Of a DNA stretch of 32,000 nucleotides, positions 24,742 through 26,394 are shown piece by piece (within the stretch, counting starts at the first letter, position 1; every line of letters begins with the position of its first letter). Both the position numbers and the translations under genes were made by a program. The notes below the pieces were generated by a model, which worked only from the letters and a program-made list of their open reading frames with translations, had not been told where the DNA came from and did no database searches. The DNA lies in assembly GCF_008000775.2 (NCBI RefSeq), contig NZ_CP042905.2, positions 3,570,001 through 3,602,000 on the forward strand, given 5' to 3'. The stretch comes from Promethearchaeum syntrophicum. GTDB taxonomy: Archaea > Asgardarchaeota > Lokiarchaeia > Sigyniarchaeales > Promethearchaeaceae.

Positions 24742-26394
24742 TTATAAAAAATATAGTCCAACTGATGAGAAAATAATACTTATTATCAATAAAATAACCT
24801 GAATTTTATTAAAGTATGGATATTCATCTCTTATTTCTGTTGGACTTGTGCTAAATGTATATCCACTAAAAGACATTGTTGAGAAGAAAGCTAACCAGAA
24901 ATAAAGAAAAATATTCAGTAACATAAAAAGAATTGAATTGTGGAGAATGTATGTTATGATACTCAATACAATAATATTAATTACTCCAATGGTTGCTCCT
25001 TTCACCATAAATTTCCGCGTAAAATTGAAAATCGGGTAGGGGATACAAATCAATATATTTGTAATGGCAATATATAACCAAAATTCTCCGATAAACCACA
25101 TTTTATCAAACATTTGAAAGAAAATCAACCCTAAACATAACAAAAGTGTTGGTTTTAAGAAAATTTTTCTATAAGAAAATGTTAAATGTGTGATTCCTGC
25201 TAGTATTCTATGAAATAGTGAAAAATTAATTTTTTTCATAGATTTTGGTTTTACTATATACTTTTTTTCAAGATATTCCGGGATATCCTTTGCCCAAATT
25301 GGACCGTAATAAAGTTTAAAAGGGAAATATGGCACATCAGTTATCAGTTGAGGAATCGCAATTCCCCCAGCAGATAATTGTGGGAGGATAATTTTACGCT
25401 GTTGTGTTTTTTCTTCAATATTTGTTGCTTTAATAGCTTCAATTAATTGTTTATTACCAAAGTTATCTCCGCGCGCACCACACCATACATTAATCCCATT
25501 ACTATCAACACATAATACCCAAGCATCAATTTTTTGAATTTTTTTCATAAAGCGAATATAGGTATAATCATAATTAGACGTTACTAATATTGGAGATTTT
25601 GAATTTGGGTTTCCAGATTGATATATTCCTGGTTCAATAGGTACAGGATCCACTTGACCAGTTAAAATACATCGCATGGAGCGAAATATTGCACTTAATC
25701 CAGAAAAAGATTTTTTAGGAGGAGTATAATAACCAGGACCCGAATTTTTCTTTAATTCTTCCTTAACTATTTCCAATACTTTAATGGAACCTTGTTTCCA
25801 ATTTTCTTCATTAATTATTTTATATCCAATAGGACCAAGATATTTTGAAAACCATTTGAGAGGAAGTGTTTTTCCACTTTTTTTTCCAGTTTTTTTTTTA
25901 TAAAACCAGCGTTCTAAGATAAATTTGATTTTTGAAAAGCCTGATGGCACAAATTCTGCAGCTAAATAAAGTCTTCCATTTGGTTTTAATAATTTCCATG
26001 CCTCTCGTAAAAAAATCTGCTGTTCTAAGGGTCGAAGTTCTGAAAGCATGAACGTGCTAACAATCACATCAAATTGTTCTGGTTTGGTGAAATCATCTAT
26101 TATTGAACCTTTAAGAAAGGAAAGTGAATTTTTTATTTCAGATGAGATATTGTTATTTGCCACACGAACCATTTTAGGATTTTTATCAATTCCAAGAACA
26201 AATGCACCTTTCTGAGCTAATTTTCTAGATAATTGACCTGGACCACAACCAACATCCATAACTTTCTCATCTGAGTGAATCCTTTCCACAATCCAATCTT
26301 GCACTTGTAAATTTATTCCTTTCGTGAGTTTAGTAAAATTTACATCATAAATAGTTGGGGTTTCTTCCAACTTTCGCATATATACAACTGCCAA
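24742..26394 (-). CDS. Fusion protein: N-terminal class I SAM-dependent methyltransferase + HgcA-like corrinoid-binding domain + C-terminal multi-TM domain
   Basis: aa ~40-150 are VMDVGCGPGQLSRKLAQKGAFVLGIDKNPKMV...FDVIVSTFMLSEL...LLKPNGRLYL, covering SAM motifs I-III. aa ~250-380 are PGIYQSGNPNSKSPILVTSNYDYTY...IDAWVLCVDSNGINVWCGARGDNFG...RKIILPQLSAGGIA...YGPIWAKDIPEYL. As far as I recall the HgcA sequence, this is colinear with its cytosolic domain (PGLY..G.P..SPVLVTANY....DAWLLV.DT.GINVWCAAGKG.F...R.L.LPQL.A.GV....GPV.A.DLP.FL), including the cobalt-ligand Cys (codon 25480-25482). aa ~390-550 form about 5 TM helices, as in HgcA. The start is TTG at 26394 or ATG at 26379. Confidence 0.75.
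   Translation of the reverse strand: MAVVYMRKLEETPTIYDVNFTKLTKGINLQVQDWIVERIHSDEKVMDVGCGPGQLSRKLAQKGAFVLGIDKNPKMVRVANNNISSEIKNSLSFLKGSIIDDFTKPEQFDVIVSTFMLSELRPLEQQIFLREAWKLLKPNGRLYLAAEFVPSGFSKIKFILERWFYKKKTGKKSGKTLPLKWFSKYLGPIGYKIINEENWKQGSIKVLEIVKEELKKNSGPGYYTPPKKSFSGLSAIFRSMRCILTGQVDPVPIEPGIYQSGNPNSKSPILVTSNYDYTYIRFMKKIQKIDAWVLCVDSNGINVWCGARGDNFGNKQLIEAIKATNIEEKTQQRKIILPQLSAGGIAIPQLITDVPYFPFKLYYGPIWAKDIPEYLEKKYIVKPKSMKKINFSLFHRILAGITHLTFSYRKIFLKPTLLLCLGLIFFQMFDKMWFIGEFWLYIAITNILICIPYPIFNFTRKFMVKGATIGVINIIVLSIITYILHNSILFMLLNIFLYFWLAFFSTMSFSGYTFSTSPTEIRDEYPYFNKIQVILLIISIIFSSVGLYFL

Follow-up and report, generated by a model that had tools for sequence, protein, structure and literature searches.

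An Asgard archaeal fusion of a CpaM-like methyltransferase with an HgcA-like corrinoid domain, encoded between arsenite efflux and ferredoxin genes

Since 2013 it has been asked what the corrinoid protein HgcA and its ferredoxin partner HgcB do for the cells that produce them: methylating mercury is not known to bring any benefit, and regulation by ArsR together with scattered ars neighbours has raised the suspicion of a link to arsenic. This question is touched on by a gene of Promethearchaeum syntrophicum located in the 32,000-nucleotide stretch analyzed here (hereafter the window; contig NZ_CP042905.2, positions 3,570,001 to 3,602,000). This gene (24742..26394, minus strand) is predicted to encode a 550-residue fusion protein in which an HgcA-like corrinoid domain is preceded by a CpaM-like S-adenosylmethionine (SAM) methyltransferase and followed by a transmembrane domain. 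The original prediction, made from the DNA alone, proposed a paralogue of HgcA that keeps the cysteine ligand of cobalt, has a remodelled helix facing the substrate, and uses a different methyl acceptor; as a whole, this interpretation was partly supported. The explanation that we prefer, with a probability of roughly one half, is that the protein belongs to an Asgard archaeal lineage of the HgcA superfamily that would relay methyl groups from SAM through a corrinoid to a metalloid.

The minus-strand translation of positions 25453-25512 is CVDSNGINVWCGARGDNFGN. It contains the cap-helix motif G-I-N-V-W-C-G-A-R-G as residues 300-309 (25468..25497, minus strand), followed by D-N-F, and the codon of Cys305 occupies positions 25480-25482 (aca on the plus strand, tgt on the coding strand). 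The motif, the codon, and the residues after the motif were as originally described, and the strand, which had not been given, is the minus strand. In a BLASTP alignment with the canonical HgcA representative P0138, DSNGINVWCGARGDNFGN was placed opposite DTKGINVWCAAGKGTFGT without gaps, and Cys305 was opposite the Cys of NVWCAAGK. Because this alignment is gapless, Cys305 is the homologue of the cobalt ligand of HgcA, Cys93; the proposed retention of the thiolate ligand is upheld, and the objection that the two cysteines might not be homologous fails. The Cys was invariant in 85 aligned sequences.

When the HgcA-like part of the protein was searched against 1.84 billion cluster representatives, 963 matches were obtained, of which 217 were usable for comparison. 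The Lys-containing motif NVWC[AS][AGS]GK, mostly followed by G-T/S-F, was found in 104 of these diverse relatives (hereafter Lys-type), showing that the comparator motif had been correctly chosen; 90 belonged to the family with NVWC[AG]ARG (ARG family), and the rest had other Lys-less variants. The cap helix was AA(S/A)GGH, AADG, AATG, or GACG in fused HgcAB-like proteins, AAGGGH, GAG(A/G)G, or SAGE in other methyltransferase-fused proteins, and G(S/A)(C/V)GGE or AACG in triple fusions. Across the sequences compared, all those outside canonical HgcA have lost the Lys, and a Gly after the Cys recurs in several Lys-less lineages there. The window protein has NVWCGARG in place of N(V/I)WC(A/S)(A/G/S)GK. 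The R-G variant occurred in none of the 104 canonical-type representatives, and NVWCGARG is missing from the published list of motifs accepted for verified methylators, namely NVWCAAGK, NVWCASGK, NVWCAGGK, NIWCAAGK, NIWCAGGK, and NVWCSAGK (PMC10087281).

Among the 120 closest database clusters, which were all about 550 residues long, shared the same architecture, and were mostly 50-55% identical to the window protein, 117 had NVWCAARG and three had NVWCGARG, and NVWC[AG]ARG was present in all 120 as well as in 90 of 90 clade members in the tree described below. The three NVWCGARG sequences formed the Prometheoarchaeum cluster (84-100% identity), and GARG was also found in one further member that was 50% identical to the window protein. 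In a 21-member alignment, N302, V303, W304, C305, A307, R308, G309, and F312 were invariant, and position 306 was Ala in at least 90% of the sequences, which indicates that Gly306 is a tolerated local variation. R308 and G309 were still conserved in at least 90% when divergent methyltransferase-fused relatives joined the alignment. The family signature is the change from G-K to R-G, followed by x-(D/N)-F-G-N replacing G-T-F-G-T; the register is kept at Phe (+7) and Gly (+8), so that the change involves no insertion or deletion. The original description of a remodelled helix holds in part: the loss of Lys with an Arg one position earlier is a hallmark of the family, whereas the replacement of Ala by Gly is local only. 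The replacement of G-K by R308-G309 constitutes a synapomorphy of this lineage.

In a neighbour-joining tree computed from 159 columns of the corrinoid domain (217 sequences, 100 bootstraps), the ARG family came out as a clade of 90 sequences with a bootstrap value of 90 and without any Lys-type member. The deep backbone of this tree was weak, the best split between the Lys-type sequences and the rest having a bootstrap value of 13, and for this reason neither HgcA nor the HgcAB-like proteins are claimed as the closer sister. In the published tree of Lin et al., "several Asgard archaea" were placed in the fused-hgcAB half, after the first 327 alignment columns had been trimmed as poorly aligned (PMC10083202). 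The trimmed region is where the methyltransferase domain would lie, and no mention of a methyltransferase fusion was found in that paper (PMC10083202). The distribution was surveyed in one genome per GTDB species, in which 143 stretches encode a relative. The best 80 of the 143 were almost all from Promethearchaeota (Lokiarchaeia), Hod-, Hermod-, and Thorarchaeota, and within this survey the lineage is almost exclusively Asgard archaeal. Two stretches labelled "Candidatus Nanopelagicaceae bacterium" (L076) and "Candidatus Bathyarchaeota" (L037) carry loci of Asgard type, with SMC, ArsR, DUF166, ACR3, and the fusion gene, and are probably mis-binned.

Scores against family models were compared at the NCBIfam cut-offs of 275 for HgcA (NF040863), 285 for HgcAB-like (NF043039), 180 for CpaM (NF043040), and 99 for HgcB. 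Canonical representatives scored 419.5 and 441.1 with the HgcA model (P0138, 419) and 201-205 with the HgcAB-like model, and had no match to CpaM at E ≤ 1e-10. Bacterial fusions, in which the ferredoxin is fused and a methyltransferase domain is absent so that the CpaM model does not apply, scored 161-166 and 399 with the HgcA and HgcAB-like models, respectively, and the methyltransferase encoded upstream of them, to which these two models do not apply, scored 262 with CpaM. The CpaM score was 260 for a triple fusion and 192 for P0240. The Asgard family, represented by the window protein, P0049, and P0121, scored 165-183 with HgcA (P0049, 165; P0121, 183), 173-179 with HgcAB-like, and 128-144 with CpaM. 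Since the family falls below all three cut-offs while the controls pass them, it is by these scores a third lineage that stands at much the same distance from HgcA as from the HgcAB-like proteins. With an HgcA score of 169.9 against the cut-off of 275, its own clade, and an extra N-terminal SAM-methyltransferase domain, the protein is a paralogue and not a canonical HgcA, as had been proposed, and we are highly confident that it represents a distinct paralogous lineage.

The domain composition of the protein was examined. A database protein of Candidatus Prometheoarchaeum syntrophicum (P0001) is 100% identical to it and has 545 residues starting from the ATG at 26379. Translation from the TTG at 26394 gives MAVVYMRKLE, and the database copy begins five codons later at the ATG (26379-26394, minus strand). 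The longer N-terminus is probably real because homologues conserve MAV(V/T/I)YM ahead of the database Met. Residues 1-215 (25750..26394, minus strand) constitute a class I SAM-methyltransferase domain (Pfam Methyltransf_25/31/11, 61-63 bits), for which CpaM was by far the best specific methyltransferase family match: the whole protein scored 143.8 bits with NF043040 (cut-off 180), with residues 3-208 aligned to model positions 2-213 of 216. The domain shared 31% identity (E 1e-25) with a bacterial CpaM that passes the cut-off, including the N-terminal MRxLE..P..Y segment. The sole Cys of residues 1-215 sits in the GCGPG SAM loop. ArsM was considered as an identity of the fused domain and rejected (41.2 bits against the NF008823 cut-off of 263; As(III)-binding cysteines absent).

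Residues ~240-380 (25255..25677, minus strand) correspond to the C-terminal corrinoid-binding part of CdhD and CFeSP (corrinoid iron-sulfur protein), with a Pfam CdhD match of 52.2 bits over residues 241-342, and a transmembrane domain follows at residues 393-549 (24745..25218, minus strand). The NCBIfam HgcA model aligned residues 253-542 to its positions 30-318 of 325 (E 7.5e-50, 169.9 bits), an end-to-end match which shows that the cap-helix motif within it did not arise by chance, and the HgcAB-like model NF043039 gave 176.8 bits (cut-off 285) over positions 11-265 of 350. An AlphaFold2 (AF2) model built from 85 aligned sequences had a mean predicted local distance difference test score (pLDDT) of 91.7 and a predicted template modelling score (pTM) of 0.88, and contained helices at residues 393-425, 433-450, 462-485, 488-512, and 518-549 as well as a short cap helix at 303-308. 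The best PDB match of this model in Foldseek was the integrative HgcAB model 9a0b_A (E 6.9e-12, template modelling score normalized to the target 0.59). The succession of a corrinoid domain and a multi-helix transmembrane domain is that of HgcA. A sequence search of the PDB did not find a solved HgcA and returned CFeSP and generic methyltransferases only.

This composition bears on the name carried by the identical database protein, acetyl-CoA decarbonylase/synthase complex subunit gamma, which would make the gene product a subunit of the Wood-Ljungdahl CFeSP. Apart from the name itself, the Pfam CdhD match fits such an assignment. The gamma-subunit model NF003195 gave 69.2 bits against a cut-off of 306 and matched over positions 311-445 of 450 only, that is, its last ~135 positions, and likewise the PDB matches to CFeSP gamma (2h9a and 4c1n) covered just their residues 310-412. 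The N-terminal Fe-S and triosephosphate isomerase (TIM) barrel parts are absent, a transmembrane domain is present, a Cys stands where CFeSP has Thr, and there are no cdh or acs neighbours in the window. The name is ruled out by the domain content, and a function as the gamma subunit is hardly credible. The misnomer could mislead reconstructions of Asgard carbon metabolism.

Directly downstream of the fusion gene, after 26 bp, lies a gene for an HgcB-like ferredoxin of 104 residues (24401..24715, minus strand; Pfam Fer4 families). It contains two CxxCxxCxxxCP motifs, then GCGC, and ends with ...CGDNSCC; an adjoining ferredoxin with two [4Fe-4S] motifs and extra cysteines is thus present, as for HgcA, and its score with the NCBIfam HgcB model was 56.6 bits, below the cut-off of 99. 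The counterparts of the GCGC and the terminal CC in HgcB are Cys73 and Cys94/95, both required for mercury methylation (PMC11588087). Among the ferredoxins of related loci, GCGC just after the second cluster motif was found in 74 of 75 and the terminal CC in 58 of 75.

The methyltransferase, the HgcA-like part, and the ferredoxin were found in several arrangements. In four bacterial loci, a free CpaM gene overlaps the gene of a fused HgcAB-like protein by 4 bp; in the window and other loci, a methyltransferase-HgcA fusion is accompanied by a free ferredoxin; and in triple fusions of ~580-590 residues (L088 5001-6746, P0393-P0396, and P0258) all three are joined, one of them (P0396) scoring above both the CpaM and the HgcAB-like cut-offs. 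The window protein and its ferredoxin, being separate gene products, differ from the single-polypeptide HgcAB-like type, and the CpaM-type partner of that type is represented by the fused N-terminal domain. Because such fusion patterns are a classical sign of it, the three modules are likely to form one functional unit. In the work of Zheng et al. on purified HgcAB, Co(I) was methylated by SAM and not by methyl-tetrahydrofolate, and the Co-S(Cys93) bond was confirmed (PMC11588087). Most simply, the fused domain would bind SAM and charge the corrinoid with the methyl group, and a methyl relay through three modules appears fairly probable.

The arrangements also bear on the idea that the system carries out corrinoid-dependent reductive chemistry, such as halomethane dehalogenation, instead of methyl transfer. 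A corrinoid-ferredoxin pair would suffice for it, and a 2026 preprint reports dechlorination of CCl4 by heterologously expressed HgcAB (10.64898/2026.04.26.720869). However, a SAM methyltransferase is fused or obligatorily adjacent in every arrangement, which is hard to explain without methyl transfer, and dehalogenase-type neighbours were not seen in related loci. We regard reductive chemistry as very unlikely.

The role of the altered cap helix can be considered from its position. In corrinoid chemistry generally, the methyl group and its acceptor sit on the corrinoid face opposite the cap helix. The cap helix of CFeSP, like that of the HgcAB model, is positioned on the alpha (lower) face of the cofactor, where Cys93 binds cobalt (PMC7305189), and the original notion of a helix facing the substrate does not agree with this placement. 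Because the helix is on the alpha face, it is more plausible that changes in it adjust the Co-S bond or the way the cofactor is packed than that they select the acceptor, and R308-G309 probably tunes cofactor binding or Co-S chemistry. From helix geometry, Arg at +3 would be on the same helical face as the Cys, like Lys at +4 in HgcA, so that a basic side chain near the cofactor may be retained but shifted.

The upstream side of the fusion gene points to metalloids. A gene for an ACR3 arsenite efflux transporter (26442..27530, minus strand; TIGR00832, 295.3 bits, cut-off 282.8) lies 47 bp upstream, and a gene for an ArsR/SmtB metalloregulator (27649..28062, plus strand; Pfam HTH_5, 57.1; HTH_metalloreg, 74.7, cut-off 55) is divergent from it. 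The ArsR has a C-V-C site (C71 and C73) plus C17, so that an ACR3 gene and a divergent ArsR gene with a thiolate site, both above their cut-offs, constitute an ars operon. The intergenic region between arsR and acr3 (27531..27648) is a candidate operator and contains an imperfect inverted repeat (27585-27598 / 27613-27626) with 14-nt arms that are 86% complementary; given the very high AT content here, the repeat could have arisen by chance. The gap between acr3 and the fusion gene held no inverted repeat.

The same layout of ArsR, ACR3, fusion, and ferredoxin genes is repeated in the cultured Lokiarchaeum ossiferum, whose protein is 51% identical. Neighbours were counted in 82 related loci, restricted for each count to those with enough flank. 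A ferredoxin gene was directly downstream in 72 of 74 loci; upstream, ACR3 was the immediate neighbour in 30 of 68 (median gap, 44 bp), a divergent ArsR was present in 39 of 62, and an ArsR, ACR3, or Cys-rich MarR in 52 of 62. Both Cys of the C-V-C site were kept in 43 of 55 ArsRs of related loci, and the ars-linked loci come from genomes whose proteins share just ~50-55% identity with the window protein. Two Asgard loci (L002 5079-5960 and L012 6327-7127) encode a true ArsM (347 bits, cut-off 263) beside the fusion gene, giving the order ArsR-DUF166-ACR3-ArsM-fusion-ferredoxin; in one of them it lies between ACR3 and the fusion gene and in the other nearby. An ArsC-like phosphatase was found downstream in nine loci and DUF166 in 17.

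Another setting was found in a subclade of 26 sequences (bootstrap 86; L006, L014, L018, L027, and others). In these loci, a MarR with paired cysteines at both ends, often an FMN (flavin mononucleotide) reductase, and a divergent membrane protein are encoded upstream, a zinc-ribbon protein, a cupin, and a major facilitator superfamily (MFS) efflux pump are encoded downstream, and ACR3 is missing. Outside this subclade, loci with the ACR3/ArsR setting are scattered across the tree. The FMN reductase was considered as ArsH and showed no match to the ArsH model.

Because the gene lies between a presumably ArsR-controlled ACR3 gene and a ferredoxin gene in an arrangement that recurs across the family, metalloid handling is suggested as its physiological setting. 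A different use of the same SAM-to-corrinoid relay would be the methylation of an organic or cellular acceptor, for example a thiol or a group on a membrane or protein, with the ars setting reflecting co-regulation or chance. The loci lacking ACR3, about half of the family, are in line with this, as are six relatives examined outside the family, which have no ars genes, and small conserved genes without a family match (c4, c8) that follow the ferredoxin in 33-44 loci. Against it, metal-sensor regulators rich in thiolates, either ArsR with CVC or Cys-rich MarR, adjoin the gene in the 52 of 62 loci mentioned above, efflux pumps recur (ACR3 or MFS), the ferredoxin keeps its metal-binding Cys tails, and it is the Cys-on corrinoid that has been connected with passing methyl groups to an electrophilic metal (PMC7305189). 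An organic acceptor is accordingly given a low probability.

The small genes 3' of the HgcB-like gene encode proteins of ~106 residues with DACACEW (44 loci) and ~108 residues (33 loci); examples are located at L050 10108-10428 and L082 2368-2697 and have no Pfam or NCBIfam match. Both are absent from the window, where a convergent YjbQ gene is found instead. In the bacterial relatives, a TetR gene precedes the pairs of CpaM and HgcAB-like genes in three of four loci, and a P-type ATPase is encoded in two (L084 and L086), in one case with YHS and heavy-metal-binding domains.

In the relay that we favour, with metalloid handling as its setting, the ferredoxin would reduce the corrinoid to Co(I), and the fused CpaM-like domain would move CH3+ from SAM to Co(I), giving a Cys-on CH3-Co(III) with Cys305 as the lower ligand. 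The methyl group would then be passed on, in the form of a carbanion or radical equivalent, to a soft metal or metalloid bound on the Cys-rich tail of the ferredoxin; in net effect, an electrophilic methyl group would be turned into a nucleophilic one. The neighbouring genes for ACR3, CVC-type ArsR, ArsM, and ArsC make thiol-bound As(III), or Sb(III), the first candidate for the acceptor, with Hg(II) as the second. As(III) as the natural acceptor is put forward tentatively from this gene context, with the odds somewhat against it. It is a rather doubtful further step that Asgard archaea have in this system a second, ArsM-independent route of metalloid methylation that uses As(III) or Sb(III) and works in step with efflux by ACR3. 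If this were true, arsenic handling would have been the original task of the whole HgcAB superfamily, and mercury methylation a side reaction within one of its branches.

Several observations weigh against a metalloid relay. Canonical hgcAB is also flanked by acr3, arsC, arsM, and arsR, as described by McDaniel et al. (PMC7438021), and an ArsR-like regulator that responds to arsenic controls hgcAB in the verified mercury methylator ND132, as described by Gionfriddo et al.; because this setting is shared, the ars context fits mercury methylation equally well. For the same reason, the different methyl acceptor of the original prediction is not established by the ars setting, suggestive as it is. 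ACR3 is not encoded at about half of the family loci, and a small sample of six relatives, made up of four CpaM/HgcAB-like loci from bacteria, a triple fusion, and another methyltransferase-fused protein, showed no ars genes. In the two genomes with ArsM in the same operon, methylation of As(III) could already be covered by that enzyme. Canonical HgcAB uses SAM without a separate methyltransferase domain (PMC11588087), and the role of the fused domain is for that reason not self-evident. Co-transcription is suggested by the 47-bp and 26-bp gaps only.

The shared ars context leads to the reading that the protein functions in mercury methylation; in that case the ARG cap helix would be neutral variation, and methylmercury would be produced by the organism. 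The residues essential for this activity are kept, namely N, V, W, and C of the cap helix, together with the transmembrane domain and the Cys73-like and terminal CC cysteines of the ferredoxin; some substitutions in the cap helix were tolerated according to the summaries of published mutagenesis in PMC10087281 and PMC7305189; and real hgcAB typically has ArsR/ars surroundings too. On the other side stand the HgcA score of 169.9 against the cut-off of 275 and canonical scores of 419-441, the separate clade with bootstrap 90, the absence of the motif from the list of verified methylators (PMC10087281), and the placement by others of Asgard sequences on the fused HgcAB-like side of the tree (PMC10083202). 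Moreover, none of the tested cultured organisms with a non-canonical fused HgcAB-like protein methylated mercury (PMC4646819, PMC10087281), which lowers the odds of mercury methylation here without removing them. No report of mercury methylation by Prometheoarchaeum or any other family member was found in the literature searched. From the sequence evidence taken together, this reading is improbable, and the metalloid relay is preferred to it.

Beyond the genes described above, an ICMT/PEMT-family membrane methyltransferase is encoded at 28099-28758 (plus strand; Pfam ICMT, 48 bits; weak similarity to MddA), with a score of 77.8 in the NCBIfam isoprenylcysteine methyltransferase model, below the cut-off of 160. 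Because this gene is located 36 bp downstream of the ArsR gene on the same strand, the two probably form a pair, in which case it would be a second methyltransferase under likely metalloid control. The central loop of a protein of the Na+/Ca2+ exchanger family encoded at 22784-23854 (minus strand) contains an uninterrupted run of over 20 Asp/Glu residues (EDEDEDEDEDEDEDDDDDDDDDDDD). Genes of the peptidase U32 family (28747-30018, minus strand) and the M24 metallopeptidase family (30028-31248, minus strand) have no evident link to the ars cluster. The flanks of the window contain ordinary chromosomal genes, encoding primase subunits, a phosphoenolpyruvate (PEP)-utilising enzyme, and aspartate carbamoyltransferase, and a tRNA scan of the window detected none. 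Nothing pointed to a mobile island.

Already known are the HgcA superfamily, the Lys-less HgcAB-like/CpaM branch within it, and the link between hgcAB and arsenic, and Asgard acr3 and arsM genes have been noted earlier, without the fusion gene (PMC10060404). In the searchable literature, no description seems to exist of the Asgard-specific methyltransferase-HgcA fusion with an ARG cap helix that never varies, or of the repeated location of its gene between the ACR3 and ferredoxin genes; within the incomplete coverage of the literature, no paper was found on the methyltransferase partner of CpaM type or on Asgard HgcA-like genes in ars operons. What this lineage adds to the question of the native role of HgcAB is a sister lineage that has the SAM methyltransferase in the same polypeptide and its gene directly between an arsenite pump and a ferredoxin, an arrangement kept in many Asgard genomes, including those of both cultured species. 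It thereby offers an expressible three-part system for tests of arsenic, antimony, and mercury methylation. Surveys that identify hgcA solely by hidden Markov model (HMM) score would, in marine sediments where Asgard archaea abound, include these genes in their count of mercury methylators.

Compared with known systems, the Asgard protein resembles HgcA/HgcB of Pseudodesulfovibrio mercurii ND132 in the N-V-W-C cap helix, the aligned Cys, the C-terminal transmembrane domain, a partner ferredoxin with two [4Fe-4S] clusters, an internal Cys, and a terminal Cys pair, the likely use of SAM as the methyl source, and the presence of ArsR and ars genes nearby. Unlike HgcA, it has a cap helix of the form C-(A/G)-A-R-G-x-(D/N)-F instead of C-A-A-G-K-G-T-F and a SAM-methyltransferase domain of ~215 residues at the N-terminus, scores below the cut-off, forms a separate clade, and is almost entirely restricted to Asgard archaea. 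With the HgcAB-like and CpaM proteins (NF043039 / NF043040), of the Pyrococcus furiosus type and its bacterial relatives, it shares a Lys-less cap helix and an obligatory SAM methyltransferase of the CpaM type, and the published tree puts Asgard archaea on that side. It differs from them in that the methyltransferase is fused to HgcA and the ferredoxin is free, whereas in the HgcAB-like type the methyltransferase is free and HgcA is fused to HgcB; in addition, AARG replaces AA(S/A)GGH, the scores are under the cut-offs of both models, and the ars setting was not seen in the four bacterial loci. The large subunit of CFeSP (AcsC / CdhE) has a homologous Rossmann-like corrinoid domain with the cap helix on the alpha face; unlike the window protein, it has Thr at the ligand position, an N-terminal Fe-S domain, and a TIM barrel, and lacks a membrane domain. 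The methyl source of CFeSP is methyl-tetrahydrofolate, supplied via a separate methyltransferase. Finally, the fused domain is similar to ArsM in its class I SAM-methyltransferase fold and in being encoded in ars operons, but it is without As(III)-binding cysteines, and ArsM moves the methyl group straight from SAM with no corrinoid.

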